Shown in pieces: positions 11,356 to 22,701 of a stretch of DNA of 64,000 nucleotides (position 1 is its first letter; each line of letters starts with the position of its first letter). The position numbers and the translations under genes were made by a program. The notes below the pieces were generated by a model. That model was not told the DNA's origin. It did no database searches and was given only the letters and a program-made list of their open reading frames with translations. The stretch covers positions 132,325 through 196,324 of the forward strand of contig CALXVP010000001.1 of NCBI GenBank assembly GCA_944392125.1. Direction: 5' to 3'. This DNA comes from an uncultured Alphaproteobacteria bacterium (GTDB taxonomy: Bacteria; Pseudomonadota; Alphaproteobacteria; CAAHEQ01; UBA3637).

Positions 11356-11784
11356 ATGGAGATTCAACCCAATTGTTTTAATGAGATTCAACAAGCCTAT
11401 TTTCAAAATGCCACTCTGAAATTTGATAGCATAAGCCTATTGCAAACACTGCGCACCGGCTCCCCGAATGCCGTCAGTTTGGGCATGGGCGATACGGTTT
11501 TACATCTTTATGTCCGCGGTTATGCCGGTGGCAAATTCAAAGATATTATTCCGGAAGATATTTTAAATCACAAGCCCCATATCAATCCCTTTATACGCAA
11601 TAAAGAGGGGTTAACGGCGTCAACACTTTTAAAGGTTTTACTGACACATCAGTCTATCAACTACCAGAAAAATCAACTCTATCAAACATTAGTTTCATAC
11701 GAAAAATGCTTTGCGGAAAAAAGATTGTGTTTAAAGCCGAATTTGATGAAATACCGTTGCGAACAAAGAGAGCGCGATTGCTAA
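11356..11784 (+). CDS. hypothetical protein, possibly ankyrin-repeat-like
   Basis: GDTVLHLYVRGYAGG ... NKEGLTASTLLKVLLTH resembles ANK repeats. Weak. Confidence 0.25.
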   Translation: MEIQPNCFNEIQQAYFQNATLKFDSISLLQTLRTGSPNAVSLGMGDTVLHLYVRGYAGGKFKDIIPEDILNHKPHINPFIRNKEGLTASTLLKVLLTHQSINYQKNQLYQTLVSYEKCFAEKRLCLKPNLMKYRCEQRERDC

Positions 11785-11892
11785 AATACCGCAAATAGTT
11801 TTGTGTATATCGCAAAAAACCGCCCGTTTCCAACGGACGGTTTTTCATTTATTCGGGTATTTTTTTATTAAACGCTCAAACAACAAACGCTT

Positions 11893-12270
11893 TTAACGGC
11901 GGTTAATAATCCGTTGCACTTCTTGCGTCACAATTCGCTCCACGATTTCGGGCAAATTCGCATTCAGCCACTCGCGCAACATCGGGCGTAAAACGGTTTC
12001 AACCTGCCCCGCAATTGGACTTTCTTCCTTTACCGCCTGCAATTTATTCAATGCCACTTGCGTGCGAAGAGCCGTTTCGGAATCAATCAGCGTTCCTTGC
12101 GATACCTGCATTTGAGGCGTTAATTCAAAAACAACGTCATTTTGTTCATTATCCGCATAAGATTTAGCTGTCTCCTTCGGGGCTTCACTTTTTAATGTGG
12201 CTGCCTCTTTTGAGAGCACTTGACGAATGGATGATAGAATCTCGCTGACTGATTGTTGCTCTTCTTGCAT
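11893..12270 (-). CDS. DUF2497 / PopZ C-terminal-domain-like protein
   Basis: The C-terminal LRPMLREWLNANLPEIVERIVTQEVQRI matches the conserved DUF2497 (PopZ C-terminal) signature. Adjacent to tolC, as in many Alphaproteobacteria. Confidence 0.45.
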   Translation of the reverse strand: MQEEQQSVSEILSSIRQVLSKEAATLKSEAPKETAKSYADNEQNDVVFELTPQMQVSQGTLIDSETALRTQVALNKLQAVKEESPIAGQVETVLRPMLREWLNANLPEIVERIVTQEVQRIINRR

Positions 12271-12279
12271 ATTCGCTCC

Positions 12280-13644
12280 TTAATCTATATTAAATCCAAT
12301 CCACTTATTTTTGATTTCATCATAATATTTTGTCGGATCATACGAGGGCACATTTAAATTTAAACCTTCCGGATTTAACTGCCCGATGGCCGACAACAAT
12401 GTAAACGCAGAAACAATTTCATCCCGATGCACTTTAACGAGTGATACTTGGTTATCTAAATGTTCCTGCTCGGCATCTAACACATCCAGTACCGTTCGTG
12501 ATCCGACTTGTGCTTCTCGAATCACACCGTCCAAAGCAATTTTAGAGGCCTTGATTTGGGCTTTAATTGAGTTAATCTGTGCTTTGTTAGAGGTATAGTT
12601 TTCCCAAGCGCTGATGGTTTGGGAACGAACGGTTTGCCGAATTTTGGAGAGCAAAATCCGATATTGATTTTCAGTGTGTTTTGCCGCCCGAATTTCGGAA
12701 TATTCACTACCCGATTGATACAACGGCACCCGCATATTCGCCATCACTTCCCAAGTATCGTTTCGTTTAAATGAGCTGTTGTCATGTTGCTTCGCCGCGG
12801 CGGCCGACACGTCAATTTGTGGCGCCAACGCACCTTTTTTCGCACTCACGGTATAGCCTGCTGCTTTTACGGCATGCTCATAAGCTTTCACTTGCGGATT
12901 GTTGGCCAACGCCAGTTGAATAGCCTCATCCAATGATTTGGGCAACCGAATGGTTGAATCGGATACATCATCCATTTGTTCTGCCGGTTCTAACCCGACC
13001 ACATCAAAATAATTTGCATTTGAAACTTGTAAACTGCCTTCAGCAGCAATCCGATTTGCCGTTGCCCCCGATAACCTGGCTTCCGATTGCGCAACGTCTG
13101 TCCGTGTCAACTCACCGGCTTTAAATCTTTTTTGGTAAGAATCCAAGTGCCGACGCAAAACCTTTTCATTATTTATTTGTAATTTTAAAACGGCCTTATC
13201 GCGAATCACATCCATATAAACGGAAATGGCATCCAGCAAAGTGGCTTGTTCCGTATTGTTCAAATTGGAACGTGCCGAGCGAACTTGACTTTTAGCCGCC
13301 TTAACGGAATTATATGTTGAAAGCCCTGAAAACACCGGTTGAACAAAGCTGATTGATAAGGCATTCGGATCTAAATCTTGATCCATTTTACTACCGCCGA
13401 ATTCATTGCTATAAATGCTTTGGATATGCGAACGGCCGACATTTCCTTCGCCGATAACCGTCGGACGATAGCCGGATTTTGCCTGTGCCACGGATTCGTC
13501 GGTTGCCTTTAATCCGGCCCGTTCGGCGTTAATGGTTAAGCTGTTTTCATACGTATATGATAAAACATCGGATAATGTTTCTGCCATAGCCACGGAAGAA
13601 ACGGTTGATAAAATTAAAGTCAGCACACTGATTTTCTTAAACAT
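12280..13644 (-). CDS. tolC: TolC-family outer-membrane efflux protein
   Basis: Signal peptide, two internally repeated halves with coiled-coil-rich segments, typical of the OEP/TolC family. 454 aa. Confidence 0.75.
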   Translation of the reverse strand: MFKKISVLTLILSTVSSVAMAETLSDVLSYTYENSLTINAERAGLKATDESVAQAKSGYRPTVIGEGNVGRSHIQSIYSNEFGGSKMDQDLDPNALSISFVQPVFSGLSTYNSVKAAKSQVRSARSNLNNTEQATLLDAISVYMDVIRDKAVLKLQINNEKVLRRHLDSYQKRFKAGELTRTDVAQSEARLSGATANRIAAEGSLQVSNANYFDVVGLEPAEQMDDVSDSTIRLPKSLDEAIQLALANNPQVKAYEHAVKAAGYTVSAKKGALAPQIDVSAAAAKQHDNSSFKRNDTWEVMANMRVPLYQSGSEYSEIRAAKHTENQYRILLSKIRQTVRSQTISAWENYTSNKAQINSIKAQIKASKIALDGVIREAQVGSRTVLDVLDAEQEHLDNQVSLVKVHRDEIVSAFTLLSAIGQLNPEGLNLNVPSYDPTKYYDEIKNKWIGFNID

Positions 13645-16829: not shown

Positions 16830-18500
16830 ATGAATATACAGATACACAAAATTACGGGAGACGGAATGAAAAAAACGATTTCTTTTTTTAAACAAATAGG
16901 TTGTCTAGAGCAAGAGAGTATACAAAGCAAAATGCCTCATCACTCGGCTTTGTCCACTGATTTTCCTGCGATACACACCGAGAAAGCCGAATCGGGGCGA
17001 TCCATGGTGGAAATACTGGCGGTGTTGGCGATTATGGGCGTGTTGGCCGTTGTGGGGATTGTGGTTTATAAATACGCCATGGATAAACACCGCGCCAATA
17101 CGATTTTACAAGATGCACATCTCGGCTTTGCCTCTATCAGAGGCACACGTGCCGAACAATTTGATTGGACGCCCGTTAATTTTGAGCCTAAAAGCGGAAA
17201 GCCCGTTGATGTTTTGCGCGATTCCGATAGAGATGACTATGTGCGCGTGCAAGAAATTGAACTTTCGGTTTGCAAACAAATTTTATTGATGGCCGTTCCG
17301 GGGAAATTGATGTTTTACGATGAACAAGGCGAAGATATGCTTACCTGCCCCGATGAATTAAACACGATTATCTTTGCGTTTGAGGGCACACGGGCGCCGG
17401 GCGTCAACTGCGAAACGGGCACCGACTGCGAGGGCGAAGGCGAAGGCGCATATTGCAATATGGATAAAGGAGTTTGTCGCACCTGCCCTGTGGAAGAAGG
17501 ATTTGTTGTCAGCCCGAACGGAGAGGCTTGTTGGCCTGTTTGCGATGAAGATACCGAAACAACCTGTATGACGGACACCGAACGTTGGTGTTGCAATAAC
17601 GAAACCGAGCTTTGCGGAGATGAAGCAGGCGTGTGCGAACTTTCAAGCGGTGTTTGCGAATATCGGTTAAAATCTCAAACAAGCGAAAAAGAGGCTGATT
17701 GCAGTTATCGGTATGAAAACCAAACCAGTAAAAAATATTCTGAGTGTGAATGCAAATTTACAAACCAAACTAGTGAAAAATATGCTGATTGCAGTTACGA
17801 AAGTTCTGGCACAGCCGAAAATTTCAAACTGAACCTCATAAAAGGGTGTCCCAGTGGACAATATTGTTATTTGGCATACTCGGACGACAGTTGTGAAAAT
17901 TCACTGGGTAGCGCAGGTGCTTCAATCATGCATGGCACATGCACGGCTTGGGCAATGACAAATCCGTCGTGCCGTATCCGTTCATTGGGGGATGTGTTGT
18001 CTTCGTGTACAACATGTCCAAACGGGCAATATTGCTATCTAGCATACAAGGATGATCAGTGTGAGCAAACTCTTGGCAGTGAGGGTGCAGCCACTATGTA
18101 CGGAACATGTACGGCTTGGGCAATGACAAATCCAACTTGTCGTATTAAAGAATTGAGCGGGGTTGTTACACCAATTCAAACGTGTCCAAACGGGCAATAT
18201 TGCTATTTGGCTTATCAAGATGAAGGTTGCGAATCCTCACTGGGCAGTACCGGAGCGGAGATCATGTACGGTGCTTGCACGGCTTGGGCAATGACAAATC
18301 CAACTTGCCCAATTAAATGGTTGGATACTGATATACTGACGCCCGTGGAAAAATGCCCAAGTAGTAAGTACTGCTACTTAAAATATGCGTCACCCGGTTG
18401 TGTGGATCCTGTAGGTTCAACCGGTTCAGACCCAATTTATGGTGTTTGTATTCCAGGAAACTCCAATAATGCAAACTGTCCTAGTGAGAGTTCAGAATAA
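16830..18500 (+). CDS. cysteine-rich tandem-repeat protein with a type IV pilin-like N-terminus (…ESG|RSMVEILAVLAIMGVLAVVGIVVYKYAM); paralogue of 1979-4861; the real start is probably internal (for example M35 at about 16932)
   Basis: Same class III signal-peptide motif as the 960-aa protein. Four C-terminal roughly 55-aa repeats (CPNGQYCYLAY...GTCTAWAMTNPTCRI). The stop overlaps the avd start (TAATG). Confidence 0.55.
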   Translation: MNIQIHKITGDGMKKTISFFKQIGCLEQESIQSKMPHHSALSTDFPAIHTEKAESGRSMVEILAVLAIMGVLAVVGIVVYKYAMDKHRANTILQDAHLGFASIRGTRAEQFDWTPVNFEPKSGKPVDVLRDSDRDDYVRVQEIELSVCKQILLMAVPGKLMFYDEQGEDMLTCPDELNTIIFAFEGTRAPGVNCETGTDCEGEGEGAYCNMDKGVCRTCPVEEGFVVSPNGEACWPVCDEDTETTCMTDTERWCCNNETELCGDEAGVCELSSGVCEYRLKSQTSEKEADCSYRYENQTSKKYSECECKFTNQTSEKYADCSYESSGTAENFKLNLIKGCPSGQYCYLAYSDDSCENSLGSAGASIMHGTCTAWAMTNPSCRIRSLGDVLSSCTTCPNGQYCYLAYKDDQCEQTLGSEGAATMYGTCTAWAMTNPTCRIKELSGVVTPIQTCPNGQYCYLAYQDEGCESSLGSTGAEIMYGACTAWAMTNPTCPIKWLDTDILTPVEKCPSSKYCYLKYASPGCVDPVGSTGSDPIYGVCIPGNSNNANCPSESSE

Positions 18501-18868
18501 TGTCTTCTCGGAGTGAACTTTTACCGATATACATAGCCTGTTACCGTTTAACGCAGGAAATTTTTTCGTGTACGATAAAATTTCCAAAAGAGTATAAATT
18601 TCTCTTAGGACAGTCATTAAATGAAAACGCCTTAAATTTATGCTGTTTAATTTCTCGCATAAACCAAATGACACAAAAGGGAACGTATTTTGAGGACTTT
18701 TTTGCGACATTTGAACGTGTGCGGATAGAATTACGTTTGAGTGCAGATTTTAATTTACTGAGCTTAAAAAAACAAGCGCATCTGGCAGTTATGCTTGAAG
18801 ATATCCATACTCAAGCGCTTGCTTGGAGGAGAAGCAACTTAAAAAAGGAGGAAAAAACGATTACATAA
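18500..18868 (+). CDS. avd: DGR accessory variability determinant (Avd-like four-helix-bundle protein)
   Basis: 122 aa. LPIYIACYRLTQEIFSCTIKFPKEYKFLLGQSL matches the Avd / four-helix-bundle family pattern. Position is immediately upstream of the TR and RT. Confidence 0.75.
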   Translation: MSSRSELLPIYIACYRLTQEIFSCTIKFPKEYKFLLGQSLNENALNLCCLISRINQMTQKGTYFEDFFATFERVRIELRLSADFNLLSLKKQAHLAVMLEDIHTQALAWRRSNLKKEEKTIT

Positions 18869-19030
18869 TCGGCCGGAGTCAGGGAAAATTCCGAATTATC
18901 CTGAGTGAGCTATATTTTAATTTTAAAAGGGTCAGTCACCAAATGATGTTTAGTAGAATTAAACGATATTTGGTATATATAATAGTATTGACTTATTCAC
19001 GGAAGATTTTTATCTTCTATAACGCCTTAG

Positions 19031-19118
19031 GCGTTAATCTTTCTTCCGGAGATGTGAACAACAACAACCGTAACAACACTAACTACGCAGTTTGTCAGTA
19101 GGTTAGGCGCCGCTTTTA
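19031..19118 (+). repeat. DGR template repeat (TR, 19031-19101) plus a conserved 3' IMH-like extension gttaggcgccgctttta (19102-19118)
   Basis: Near-identical to the 3' end of the minus-strand gene 20461-20871. Every mismatch maps to an adenine in this copy. It is A-rich (AAC)n, and its translation (…NNNNRNNTNYAVCQ) appears as the spurious ORF 18823-19101. Confidence 0.85.
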
Positions 19119-19141
19119 AAATTAAAATTTAATAAATTGAT

Positions 19142-20440
19142 ATGGAACAGATTGATTTTTTTAACTTATTATCTGATTTAACACTTGAAGATGTATTTCA
19201 AGCGTATTTTGAGTGTCGCCGAAACAAAAGGCGCACGCTATCGTCTTTAAATTTTGAAATGAACTACGAACAAAATTTAATTCAACTATGGAAAGACATA
19301 ACGCAAAGGCGCTATCAACTAGCTGATTCTAATGCTTTTATTGTAAAATATCCTGTCCCACGAGAAGTATTTGCAGCACAATTTAGAGATAGAATTGTTC
19401 ATCATCTCGTAATTGGACGGTTATTACCGCATTTTGAAAAAGCTTTTTCAGATTATTCATATAGTTGCCGCGCTGGGAAAGGAACATTGTATGGCATTCG
19501 TGACATAGAAGAAATGCTCAAAATTTGCTCTAAAAATTACACAAAAAATTGTTTTGTTTTACGTTTAGACATTGAGGGTTTTTTCTTCCATATCGACAAA
19601 CGAATATTGCATAAACAAATTATATCACTTGTTAATAATTCCTATTTTAAATCAAATAAATCCACAATACTCTATCTTATTGACTTAATTTTAAACGATA
19701 AACCAACAATTCACTGCAAAAAAAAGACGCCGCAAAACAGTTGGAAAAATTTACCAAGAACAAAAAGCCTATTTTATGCAGATAGGGATTGTGGCTTGCC
19801 TATCGGAAATTTAACAAGCCAAATTTTTGCAAATTTTTATTTAAACGGGTTAGACCATTACATCACACAACTGAATCCGGAATTGTTCTATGGCCGGTAC
19901 GTGGATGACATGGTACTTATTCATTCCGACAAAGAATACCTGTGCCACGTAAAAAACTTAATTCAAACTTATCTTCATAATAACTTAAACCTTAATTTAC
20001 ACCCTAAAAAAATAGTCTTACAACACTACGGAAAAGGCTTTTTATTCATTGGAGCATACATTCTTCCAAATCGAACATATCCGTCCAAAAGGCTACAAAA
20101 ATCTTTTTATAGGCGAATTTCATATCTGAATAACCTGTGGAAAAATAAAAATATGAATACAGTTGAAAAAGAATTGGTAAATAAAACATTATGTATCTTA
20201 AATTCCTATTTTGGGCTACTTAGGAACTTCAATTCTTGGCGTATTAAACTGAAAGGTTGGAATATGCTTTCTCCCGAAATAAGAGAGGTTTTTTTTAGTG
20301 ACTTAAATTTTTCAAAAGTCAAAATTTGCGATAAAATGAAAGAAAGGTTTAGAGTTGAGGCACGTAACATTCTGCAGCCCCCGCTAATGGGGCTGCAAAA
20401 TAAAACCGCCTTTTTAAAAAGGCGGTTTAAGAAAAAATAA
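19142..20440 (+). CDS. diversity-generating retroelement reverse transcriptase
   Basis: RT motifs, including YVDDMVLI (YxDD) and the DGR-diagnostic LPIGNLTSQIFANFYL (SQ replaces the group II intron QGxxxSP). 432 aa with no maturase or endonuclease domains. Adjacent TR/VR pair. Confidence 0.9.
   Translation: MEQIDFFNLLSDLTLEDVFQAYFECRRNKRRTLSSLNFEMNYEQNLIQLWKDITQRRYQLADSNAFIVKYPVPREVFAAQFRDRIVHHLVIGRLLPHFEKAFSDYSYSCRAGKGTLYGIRDIEEMLKICSKNYTKNCFVLRLDIEGFFFHIDKRILHKQIISLVNNSYFKSNKSTILYLIDLILNDKPTIHCKKKTPQNSWKNLPRTKSLFYADRDCGLPIGNLTSQIFANFYLNGLDHYITQLNPELFYGRYVDDMVLIHSDKEYLCHVKNLIQTYLHNNLNLNLHPKKIVLQHYGKGFLFIGAYILPNRTYPSKRLQKSFYRRISYLNNLWKNKNMNTVEKELVNKTLCILNSYFGLLRNFNSWRIKLKGWNMLSPEIREVFFSDLNFSKVKICDKMKERFRVEARNILQPPLMGLQNKTAFLKRRFKKK
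20382..20436. promoter_or_regulatory. two strong hairpins inside the 3' end of the RT coding region (tgcagcccc-N7-ggggctgca at 20382-20406; aaaccgccttttt/aaaaaggcggttt palindrome at 20410-20436), immediately 3' of the VR/IMH on the target strand
   Basis: Seen directly. Their position relative to the IMH resembles the hairpin/cruciform element that enhances DGR homing. They could also terminate the convergent transcripts. Confidence 0.4.
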
Positions 20441-20443
20441 AAT

Positions 20444-20534
20444 TAAAAGCGGCGCCTAACCTACTGACAAACTGCGTAGTAAGTGGTGTAACGGCCGACG
20501 TCGTTGACCACATCTCCGGAAGAAAGATTAACGC
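20444..20534 (-). repeat. DGR variable repeat (VR, 20461-20534) plus IMH (20444-20460, gttaggcgccgctttta)
   Basis: Reverse complement aligns to TR 19031-19118. Differences are only at TR adenines (aac to gtc/gac/ggc/tac/acc), plus one extra codon relative to the TR. Confidence 0.85.
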
Positions 20535-20871
20535 GGTACGCATTTGTAGTACCAGACCCTAAGCTAGACCAAACCCACTTGTCCGGTCCCATACTGACTA
20601 CATTTGGGCAACTACCGGAAGCAGATCCTCCCAACCAGCGTTCCTCTTCACTAATGTAACAAATATCGTCCATTGAAGCCAATTCCATTCCTTGTGATTC
20701 ACACCATGTGAACGCACTCCACCAGTTCACACTAACATCACTCACACAAAAGGTTTTGCCGTTTTTACCAGTAAACATTTCGCCATCATTGCAAGTGCCT
20801 GCCCATACGGATTGAGATACCAATACGGTATAAAGTGTTAATCCAAGTAACCAAATATAATTTTTTCTCAT
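20461..20871 (-). CDS. DGR target protein: small secreted C-type-lectin-fold (CLec) protein with the VR at its C-terminus (…GDVVNDVGRYTTYYAVCQ)
   Basis: Signal peptide (LLGLTLYTVLVSQSVWA). CTLD-like motifs (WCESQGMELAS, WLGG, WVWS). The VR encodes the last roughly 24 aa, and the stop codon is followed directly by the IMH. Confidence 0.8.
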   Translation of the reverse strand: MRKNYIWLLGLTLYTVLVSQSVWAGTCNDGEMFTGKNGKTFCVSDVSVNWWSAFTWCESQGMELASMDDICYISEEERWLGGSASGSCPNVVSMGPDKWVWSSLGSGTTNAYRVNLSSGDVVNDVGRYTTYYAVCQ

Positions 20872-21089
20872 TTCATCTCCTTTTCTTCTTTGTCGTTATA
20901 ATAGTTCTGGTTCATTTTACCCGATTTTCCCGTTTTTTTGCAAGTATTATTTCTGTTTTTCTAAAAATTTATGCTTGCACTGCTCATTCGCGCACCGCTC
21001 TTAAAAAAGTGACAGTGTTTCTCTATATATAACACCTGCAAACATAACGTCGGCTTAACGTTTGTTTGTCTTCTTGATTATCCCAAAAT

Positions 21090-21419
21090 CTACGCGTTCC
21101 GTTTCCAAACACGCAATTTGTTCTTTTCTTCTTTGTTACGCAAGGCTGTTTCTAAATCAATCCCGTGCATATTCGCAAGCGAACATACGTATATCAACAC
21201 GTCCGCCAACTCGTCTGCCACATTTCCCGCAACGGAACCCGTGCCGATTGAGCCACCTTTGGCATTTTTACGGACAGCGCTAATCAACTCTCCGCATTCT
21301 TCCGCTAATAAACAACATTCATAAAAACAATCGGTTGTATTAAATCCGCGCGCTTTTTTCATTTGCAATACATACGATTGTATTTCAGCCAACGTAGGTT
21401 TTTCGGGTAAATCAATCAT
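21090..21419 (-). CDS. MazG-like nucleotide pyrophosphohydrolase domain protein
   Basis: 109 aa. EECGELISAV...ELADVLIYV is the MazG/NTP-PPase EExxE...D/E pattern. Confidence 0.6.
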   Translation of the reverse strand: MIDLPEKPTLAEIQSYVLQMKKARGFNTTDCFYECCLLAEECGELISAVRKNAKGGSIGTGSVAGNVADELADVLIYVCSLANMHGIDLETALRNKEEKNKLRVWKRNA

Positions 21420-21552: not shown

Positions 21553-22701
21553 ATGATGGACAACAATAATCCTATTTTCTTACCTGATTACGATAACAGT
21601 ATTCTTTCCGTATCGGCATCACTGGCTTCTTATTATCAAATTCCGACCGATTACAAAACAAATCCGCTGATTGATTCTGCGCTTCAAAAAGGATATAAAA
21701 ATGTTATCTTATTCGTTGTGGACGGATTAGGCAAAAGTATTCTGTTTAACCATATACCCGAGACGGCTTTTTTGCGCCAAAAATACCGCAAAACAATTTC
21801 CTCCGTTTTTCCGCCCACAACCGCTGCCGCTACCCGAACGCTACAAACTGCTTTACCGCCGATTGTTCACGGCTGGCTCGGTTGGTCTTGTTATTTTAAA
21901 GAGTATCAGCGAACCATTACGCTTTTTACCGATACCGACTATTATACGGATTTGCCCGTTCCCGATTTCCCCGGTTCGCGTAAACTTATTCCTTTTACCT
22001 TCTTTTGGCAGAAAATTAATCCCGCACTCAATATTCAAACGCATACCCTTTTCCCCGATAAGATTGACCATAAGGGCATTGTGAATTTACACAAGATGAA
22101 TAGAAGAATAAAAGAAATTACGCAATCGGACGGAAAACATTTTATTTACGCTTATTGGGCCGAACCGGATCATACATCTCACGCGTATGGTCCCGATAGT
22201 CCGGAAGTGGCTAATCGGGTACGCTTAATCAATCGCCGTTTGCGTCAACTCCATGCCGATTTGAAAGATACCCTCTTAATCATTACGGCTGACCATGGGC
22301 AAATTTCCGTTTCGGAAACATTACTCATTAACCAATACCCCGAACTTTTGGATTGTTTGGCGTGTCCGCTCAGTTTGGAGGGGCGAGCCGTATCAGTATT
22401 CGTAAAACCGGATAAAAAAGATGTATTTGAACGCGAATTTGCTAAACATTTAGCGCAAGATTTTATTCTTGTTCCGCGCGAGGAGGTTATTAAGAATGCC
22501 TTGTTCGGAAAAGGAACTCCGCATCCAAAAGCGCATGATTTTATCGGCGATTATCTCCTTATTGCCATTACGGATAAAATTTTGGAGCAAACTTACCCCG
22601 AGGACAAACGCAATTTAATTCTCCGCGGCTCCCATGCCGGCATAACGAAAAAAGAAATGGAAGTGCCGTTGATTATTGCGCCCTCAAAAGATAAATCTTA
22701 A
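21553..22701 (+). CDS. alkaline-phosphatase-superfamily protein (type I phosphodiesterase / nucleotide pyrophosphatase-like)
   Basis: VILFVVDGLGKS, FPPTTAAATRTLQTALPPIVHG and AEPDHTSHAYGPDS match AP-superfamily metal-ligand motifs. An RBS (aggagg) precedes the ATG at 21553. Confidence 0.6.
   Translation: MMDNNNPIFLPDYDNSILSVSASLASYYQIPTDYKTNPLIDSALQKGYKNVILFVVDGLGKSILFNHIPETAFLRQKYRKTISSVFPPTTAAATRTLQTALPPIVHGWLGWSCYFKEYQRTITLFTDTDYYTDLPVPDFPGSRKLIPFTFFWQKINPALNIQTHTLFPDKIDHKGIVNLHKMNRRIKEITQSDGKHFIYAYWAEPDHTSHAYGPDSPEVANRVRLINRRLRQLHADLKDTLLIITADHGQISVSETLLINQYPELLDCLACPLSLEGRAVSVFVKPDKKDVFEREFAKHLAQDFILVPREEVIKNALFGKGTPHPKAHDFIGDYLLIAITDKILEQTYPEDKRNLILRGSHAGITKKEMEVPLIIAPSKDKS

Follow-up and report, generated by a model that had tools for sequence, protein, structure and literature searches.

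A stretch of 64,000 nt from an uncultured gut alphaproteobacterium (GenBank assembly GCA_944392125.1, contig CALXVP010000001.1, positions 132,325 to 196,324 of the forward strand; hereafter the window) carries a complete diversity-generating retroelement (DGR), which is chromosomal, with housekeeping genes in its flanks. On the strand of its target gene, the variable repeat (VR) is followed by two stem-loops, H1 and H2, which lie inside the coding sequence of the convergent reverse transcriptase (RT) gene (Table 1). Sequence comparison with related loci showed that this H1/H2 module belongs to the flank of the VR and not to the RT. The region probably represents the 3′ cis-acting VR flank of an active DGR, in which the hairpins would have a dual role, terminating target transcription and enhancing homing.

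Position and distribution of the stem-loop module

The RT and target genes run tail to tail; their stop codons (TAA at 20438–20440 and TAG at 20461–20463, respectively) are separated by exactly 20 nt (20441–20460), a layout that a preliminary description of the locus had given correctly, as it had the presence of a DGR with its target convergent to the RT. The identity between template repeat (TR) and VR runs beyond the target stop to 20443. Its GC-rich end, which resembles an initiation of mutagenic homing (IMH) element, was found between the stops, where the preliminary description had put it, and is one nucleotide longer than the 17 nt (20444–20460) first assigned. On the target strand, H1 starts 14 nt and H2 45 nt 3′ of this homology. 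Both hairpins are contained within the last 68 nt of the RT open reading frame (ORF; codons 411–429), not within the last 60 nt as had been thought; the region then delimited, starting at 20381, cuts into H2. That the same bases encode the RT C-terminus (residues 411–429) proved correct: H2 specifies LQPPLMGLQ (codons 411–419) and H1 specifies KTAFLKRRF (codons 421–429). Existence and sequences of the two strong hairpins had also been recognized, but at coordinates ∼8 nt too high, the 9-bp stem having been placed at 20382–20406 and the palindrome, the stem of which comprises 11 bp, at 20410–20436.

Folding of both strands, as the preliminary description had proposed, confirmed that positions 20370–20475 are structured. 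As RNA, the − strand folded at −38.4 kcal/mol (z −3.5) and the + strand at −34.7 kcal/mol (z −3.8; none of 200 shuffles was as good); as DNA, each hairpin alone reached −11 to −12 kcal/mol (z −4.2 to −5.1). The equivalent stretch 3′ of the TR showed no structure (z +0.98). The window contains only seven perfect hairpins whose stems reach 8 bp or more and include four or more GC pairs; H1 and H2 are two of these and adjacent, and the other GC-rich hairpins are single. At the other convergent gene pair of the window (39243/39423), the hairpin sits in the 180-nt gap between the genes. The core of H1 (CCGCC…GGCGG) occurs once in the window, which rules out that the hairpin is a repetitive extragenic palindromic (REP)-like or other repeated element.

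The locus was compared with homologous loci, 80 from a genome collection plus close relatives; a TR/VR pair with adenine-biased differences adjoined the RT in 49 of the 80 and in most of the close relatives. A metagenome scan with a clade-specific RT segment yielded at least five loci, one of which was useful (L099). Hairpins in the VR flanks were compared by tabulated position, MAFFT alignment of these flanks having misplaced them. The closest RT relatives (52–63% identical) stem from metagenome-assembled genomes of gut Alphaproteobacteria. All of them have the order avd-TR-RT with the target downstream of the RT, on a strand that varies: it is co-directional with the RT in L094 (which it abuts), L002, and L099, on the opposite strand at a distance of 1.2–1.3 kb in L089 and L105, and convergent across a 58-nt gap in L104. 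RT relatives at 35–49% identity mostly have the canonical order target-avd-TR-RT. No VR was found within the retrieved flanks of L001, L093, L097, L107, L108, and L109, all of which but L109 have a recognizable TR; these loci are thus uninformative about hairpins.

The window locus, L089, L002, and L094 share one plan after the VR, with H1 at 7–19 nt, H2 at 40–48 nt, and 29–33 nt from the start of H1 to that of H2, irrespective of whether the target is convergent to the RT or co-directional with it. The H1 core, in the form (A)TCCGCC…GGCGGA(T), follows the VR in these four lineages and, as a fourth hairpin, in L105, and occurs nowhere else in those loci. In the H2 equivalents of L089, L002, and L094, the pairing is kept and the stems are unrelated (GCAGCCCC, GTCCCTTTT, and CGGGCTGC); CGGGCTGC corresponds to the H2 stem of the window with its arms swapped. 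The loops in the relatives are A/T-rich, 5–8 nt long, and often read ATT(T)AAA(A). The module follows the VR even where 0.6–1.3 kb separate the latter from the RT or the two are on different strands. At the RT 3′ ends of relatives, none of the 10 examined contained an H1/H2 module, and 8 of them folded at −12 to −24 kcal/mol compared with −42.6 kcal/mol in the window. As the module stands after the VR wherever the VR sits, and is missing from the RT 3′ ends of relatives, it is a property of the VR flank.

In the RT alignment, conservation is lost after ∼residue 408; the tails beyond this point vary in length and are rich in K and R in the relatives. Residues 411–432 of the window RT derive from the reverse complement of the hairpin module, and, judging from the loci compared, it is only in this species that the RT ORF reads into the module, via a poorly conserved basic tail. 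The preliminary description had reasoned that the hairpins would be incidental if homologues conserved the RT C-terminus without them. The outcome was split: relatives lack the palindromes at their RT 3′ ends, yet have them after the VR wherever it sits. Thus, the overlap with the RT is incidental, whereas the hairpins themselves are not. The locus shows that the stem-loop module is inherited with the target and not with the RT, with constant geometry while the stems change, and that it tolerates lying within the coding sequence of another gene. For annotation, this means that cis elements of DGRs are worth seeking inside neighboring ORFs, and the locus lends itself to the engineering of compact DGR cassettes.

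Table 1. Features of the DGR locus (positions in the window; hairpin loops in brackets).
Feature	Position	Strand	Properties
Hairpin H2, TGCAGCCCC[CGCTAAT]GGGGCTGCA	20373–20397	−	9-bp GC-rich stem (7 GC), 7-nt loop, no T-run
Hairpin H1, AAACCGCCTTT[TTAA]AAAGGCGGTTT	20403–20428	−	11-bp stem (5 GC), CCGCC/GGCGG core, 4-nt TTAA loop
IMH-like GC-rich end of homology, GTTAGGCGCCGCTTTTAA	20443–20460	−	18 nt; fills the 20-nt gap; invariant in all strain versions
VR	20443–20534	−	hypervariable part 20480–20509; one codon more than TR
TR	19031–19119	+	all 15 VR mismatches at TR adenines; last 18 nt = IMH*
avd accessory gene	18500–18868	+	122 aa; Pfam bAvd, NCBIfam DGR Avd, bAvd in orthologues
DGR reverse transcriptase gene	19142–20440	+	432 aa; IGNLTSQ and YVDD; Pfam RVT_1; homologues in DGR cassettes
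Target gene	20461–20871	−	136-aa secreted protein (ORF and translation); C-type-lectin-like fold predicted
5′ arm of long-range helix	18911–18929	+	pairs with 19113–19131; inverted repeat, 19 nt, 95% complementary

The cassette, its diversification, and known DGRs

The VR comprises the last 24 codons of the target plus sequence past its stop. In the gapped alignment of TR and VR, 15 of 15 mismatches fell on TR adenines, besides one 3-nt indel, i.e., the two repeats differ almost only at TR adenines as is characteristic of a DGR. Six other metagenome assemblies of the same species (L081 and L083–L087; RT 99–100% identical to that of the window) were compared with the window. In L083, L084, L086, and L087, the 2.4-kb cassette departs from the window only inside the hypervariable part of the VR, whereas L081 and L085 contain a few further substitutions outside of it. 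Together, the six contributed four further VR versions (five in seven assemblies); TR, IMH, and hairpins were unchanged in all six. Diversification is ongoing at this locus, and the sequence comparison showed that the DGR is active in nature. With a 30-nt stretch of the VR as the sole difference between cassettes in four of the six assemblies, the locus constitutes a clean natural case of a DGR in the act of diversifying.

A few details of the repeats deserve mention. The target of the window comprises 136 aa compared with 135 aa in the six other assemblies, due to one extra codon in the VR (20480–20509, compared with TR 19057–19081), the indel lying opposite the AAC run. A 3-nt TR/VR indel is present in the L089 lineage as well, and codon-sized indels opposite AAC runs have been described for DGRs (Schillinger et al, 2012, PMC3521204; Wu et al, 2018, PMC5758913). 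Synonymous changes at non-adenine positions were observed in the VR of L083 (G to C at TR 19056) and of L086/L087 (T to A in the ACT codon).

The remaining components are those of a DGR. The product of avd matched Pfam bAvd with an E-value of 1e-9 (39.2 bits; cut-off 40) and NCBIfam DivGenRetAVD with 5e-12, which is under the family cut-off; its orthologues match bAvd in most relatives, and the Avd accessory protein expected of a DGR is present. The TR has seven AAC codons in frame and is separated from the RT gene by a spacer of 22 nt. The RT product matched Pfam RVT_1 (E 5e-16) and contains, as IGNLTSQ and YVDD, the motifs (I/L)GxxxSQ and YxDD of the DGR clade. The target gene has its own ribosome-binding site and, according to a promoter scan, a promoter-like site at 20943–20914; the encoded protein carries a signal peptide. 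It matched no Pfam or NCBIfam family, and its sequence produced weak matches to CLEC2D and CD69 in the PDB. C-type lectin-like domains predominated among the best Foldseek matches in the PDB for its AlphaFold2 (AF2) model (pLDDT 77), with prob up to 0.99, E between 2e-3 and 2e-2, and TM 0.35–0.47. According to this model, the target adopts a C-type-lectin-like, i.e., variation-tolerant, fold, with the VR at the 3′ end of its ORF. A search of positions 18400–21000 against Rfam (E up to 1) gave no match, and the sole match of a distant DNA search in a phage collection was a 64-nt stretch with an RT motif.

The locus resembles the DGR of Bordetella phage BPP-1 (mtd-avd-TR-brt; Guo et al, 2011, PMC3240598) in its Avd, TR, and RT, in the adenine-specific TR-to-VR differences, in the VR at the 3′ end of a target with C-type lectin fold (here predicted by the AF2 model), in a GC-rich homology end that spans the stop codon, and in a GC-containing stem-loop 4–34 bp past the VR with none past the TR. 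In BPP-1, the latter element has a GC-rich stem of 7–10 bp. The preliminary description had seen both hairpins at the position of the BPP-1 cruciform; this holds for H1 (11 bp at 14 nt), but H2 (9 bp at 45 nt) lies beyond the reported range. Unlike in BPP-1, the target is downstream of the RT and convergent, IMH and its TR counterpart (IMH*) are identical, there are two stem-loops instead of one, and these overlap the RT coding sequence. Also different are the loops, which read TTAA in H1 and, on the target strand, ATTAGCG in H2 (ATTWAAA-like in relatives) instead of the 4-nt GRNA, and the TR-to-RT spacer of only 22 nt; with so short a spacer, a BPP-1-like priming region could not avoid overlapping the RT coding sequence. 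The sequences of TR and VR are the same over their last 38 nt. As identical IMH and IMH* have been reported for some DGRs (Wu et al, 2018, PMC5758913), this does not exclude the locus from the DGRs, the characteristics of which it mostly shares; a distinct IMH/IMH* pair and a GRNA loop are the ones it lacks.

The gene layout, which the preliminary description had presented as remarkable, is tidy but fairly ordinary: VRs on the strand opposite to the TR are catalogued, as are 48 cassette variants (Schillinger et al, 2012, PMC3521204; Wu et al, 2018, PMC5758913), and inversion of the BPP-1 target left homing unaffected. The locus shares the avd-TR-RT core at varied target position with the architecture B1 family (Wu et al, 2018, PMC5758913) and the opposite-strand VRs with Pseudogulbenkiania NH8B (Schillinger et al, 2012, PMC3521204), and, as in these variants, its opposite-strand target has to be transcribed as a separate unit. 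What sets it apart is the inverted repeat overlapping the RT ORF, of which the texts examined make no mention; more generally, no earlier report of VR-flank stem-loops overlapping the RT reading frame was found in the literature examined.

Proposed role of the hairpins and competing explanations

The VR flank consists of the GC-rich, IMH-like homology end, a T-rich spacer of 14 nt, H1, and H2, and moves with the target gene in this DGR clade. Because the target cassette lies tail to tail with the RT in this species, the RT frame runs through the module: leaving the conserved domain at ∼residue 408, it crosses the reverse complement of H2 and H1, stops 3 nt short of the homology, and thereby gains a short basic tail. 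The lysine-coding A-runs (KKK) of this tail are the complement of the T-runs around H1. An inverted cassette with one breakpoint in the RT tail would give precisely such a layout. H1 would end target transcription on the − strand, shielding the RT from antisense transcripts. In single-stranded target-sense DNA, the stem-loops would designate the VR as the recipient and make cDNA integration more efficient, as is the case in BPP-1, where a GC-rich stem-loop 4–34 bp past the VR is required for efficient homing and acts by its structure (Guo et al, 2011, PMC3240598), a role reconfirmed in E. coli. A mark on the VR would be needed because IMH and IMH* are identical, in which case recognition extends downstream (Wu et al, 2018, PMC5758913). 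Since, in addition, the TR flank is unstructured, the stem-loops are the obvious VR-marking feature, as Wu et al anticipated for such cases. By analogy, a role in recognizing the target for homing is plausible. In contrast, a function as cDNA-priming structure, which had also been considered, does not agree with the BPP-1 prototype, where the cDNA is primed from the spacer of the TR RNA and made without involvement of the VR (Naorem, 2017, PMC5703328). The accepted DGR mechanism is left unchanged by these findings.

Several observations weigh against this dual role. The part of the stem-loops in homing is drawn by analogy, their loops do not fit the GRNA loop that is essential in BPP-1, and H1 with its T-run is fully accounted for by an ordinary terminator. 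As judged from the related loci, the module is not universal even within the clade: the VR of L104, the sole other tightly convergent relative, is followed by just a weak AT-rich hairpin (two GC pairs), and that of L099 by unrelated stems. A strong hairpin followed the VR in only 17 of the 61 TR/VR pairs surveyed, and such repeats are reported for 34% of DGRs (Wu et al, 2018, PMC5758913). Furthermore, the module was encountered in 4–5 independent lineages, and shared descent could explain part of its conservation.

That the hairpins are solely terminators of target transcription, with H2 as a back-up or an RNA-stabilizing stem behind H1, which stop target transcripts from going antisense into the RT and take no part in retrohoming, is the main rival explanation, though a somewhat unlikely one. 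Read on the − strand, H1 has the textbook form of an intrinsic terminator, with a GC core, a stem extended by A/T pairs, and the tail TATTTTG. Like Rho-independent terminators at convergent gene ends, it has a short loop and sits where both genes meet; T-rich tails follow H1 in L089 and L002 as well, some DGRs simply carry terminators 3′ of their targets (Wu et al, 2018, PMC5758913), and Guo et al (2011, PMC3240598) compare their own element to terminator-like stem-loops. Unlike such terminators, however, H1 lies inside one of the ORFs, is paired with a second hairpin lacking a T-run, is not terminator-like on the RT strand, and has a core that was found only beside VRs in related loci. H2 is without a T-run in every lineage (0–3 T per 10-nt tail), yet it has been kept in four lineages with altered stems; H1 of L094 has no T-run either (GGACTTGACG), the remaining hairpins of the window are not paired, and, IMH and IMH* being identical, something downstream must tell the VR from the TR. 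A stem-loop followed by a T-run is formed neither by H2 on either strand nor by H1 on the + strand, so that only on the target strand does H1 look like an intrinsic terminator. Termination of both convergent transcripts, as the preliminary description had it, is not borne out: both hairpins are upstream of the RT stop, and termination there would leave an RT mRNA without stop codon, which is why they cannot usefully terminate the RT message.

The same consideration applies if the stem-loops were to act as RNA on the RT message, as 3′ stabilizers or as translational regulators of the RT tail, and had been selected in the RT gene. Both hairpins do fold in + strand RNA, with the energy and z-score given above, but an mRNA trimmed to them would be stop-less. 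Moreover, when the module was sought at the RT 3′ ends of relatives with the VR elsewhere, it was not found, and it accompanies distant (0.6–1.3 kb) and opposite-strand VRs alike, which makes selection in the RT gene highly improbable. It is even harder to conceive of the palindromes as chance, or as a by-product of encoding a basic RT tail in an AT-rich genome. Although the RT tails of relatives are K/R-rich too, z-scores between −3.5 and −5.1, an adjacent pair out of only seven such hairpins in 64 kb, the unique core of H1, and a module whose geometry persists in the non-coding VR flanks of other lineages effectively refute this notion. The combination of terminator and homing enhancer remains the explanation we favor.

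Orientation of the target and further elements of the locus

GC skew of the + strand was negative in every 8-kb window over the 64 kb (overall −0.107), and about three-quarters of the large ORFs are on the − strand, which is therefore probably the leading strand. If so, the target is co-directional with replication and avd-TR-RT is head-on. A 2026 study in E. coli reported editing to be 7–44 times better when the target was co-directional with replication; that the − strand orientation of the target is the favored one is suggestive only. Throughout this clade, the target lies downstream of the RT, whereas its strand flips between lineages. A second opposite-strand lineage, L110, has a GC skew of the same sign (−0.048 over 21 kb). 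Loci of 7–11 kb, as retrieved from relatives, are too short for such an analysis, local gene orientation dominating the skew, so that usable values came from the window (64 kb) and L110 (21 kb) alone; in the short L104 and L105 loci the skew was not consistent. This inconsistency weighs against the replication argument, which, being based on GC skew, is suggestive only. The locus can help to test whether natural target orientation follows the direction of replication.

Downstream of the RT stop (20440), no terminator-like site was found on the + strand up to the end of the scan at 21600. As none lies between this stop and the VR (20443), the complete RT message would read into antisense VR. 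In such + strand RNA, the segments 19031–19131, with the TR, and 20426–20534, with the antisense VR, were predicted to form a duplex of ∼90 bp at −137 kcal/mol, compared with −30 ± 5 kcal/mol for shuffles. The antisense VR may, by pairing with the TR on the same RNA, constitute a built-in double-stranded RNA (dsRNA) switch on template availability; if true, this switch would weaken as the VR diverges from the TR. In addition, a flip of the target cassette may have aligned the VR with the direction of the replication fork, leaving avd-TR-RT head-on, which would be the natural counterpart of the replication-direction rule in E. coli. That the tail-to-tail layout is functional in these two respects, and not an accident of packing, is nonetheless rather doubtful.

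A weak 21-nt inverted repeat (20304–20324/20951–20971, 76% complementary) brackets the whole target cassette, i.e., H2, H1, IMH, VR, gene, and promoter; it was considered as a possible inversion scar and judged to be probably a chance match in AT-rich DNA. Among the relatives whose target is on the opposite strand, L110 is the closest; there, tandem repeats of ∼200 nt (at 11450–12350; also in L111) fill the 1.2 kb between RT and target, and their copy number varies between samples (a 200-nt length difference between L110 and L111).

Upstream of the RT, a long-range helix joins sequence upstream of the TR to the TR 3′ end (IMH* plus spacer), closing the TR as a loop. It is kept in 10 members of the clade, with AU/UA swaps. 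Beside it lies a conserved hairpin, GGTCAGTCACC…AGTATTGACT (∼18930–18993). Like the helix, it is found in 10 members of the clade, and the two show some compensatory changes; together they are probably the RNA scaffold of the DGR. Another hairpin, TAACGCC[TTA]GGCGTTA followed by ATCTTTCTTC, is situated at 19020–19036, exactly on the 5′ edge of the TR. It has a terminator-like score and could delimit cDNA synthesis at its far end.

Upstream of avd, where the target canonically sits, there is an ORF of 556 aa (16830–18500, + strand) with a type IV pilin-like N-terminus (GRSMVEILAVLAIMGVLAVVG) and Cys-rich repeats of 56 aa, encoded by 168-nt tandem repeats (17843–18317). It contains no VR and matched no Pfam or NCBIfam family; a second VR in it is ruled out, as the TR ends occur just twice in the window. 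Large ORFs (330–648 aa) are present at the same position in most relatives of the clade (L089, L093, L094, L104, L105, and L108), and the DGR or the variable protein may have a conserved partner in the 556-aa ORF. On the other side of the cassette, just upstream of the target and on the same strand, lies a gene for a MazG-like nucleotide pyrophosphohydrolase of 109 aa (21090–21419, − strand); in L081, the ORF called at this position comprises only 67 aa.

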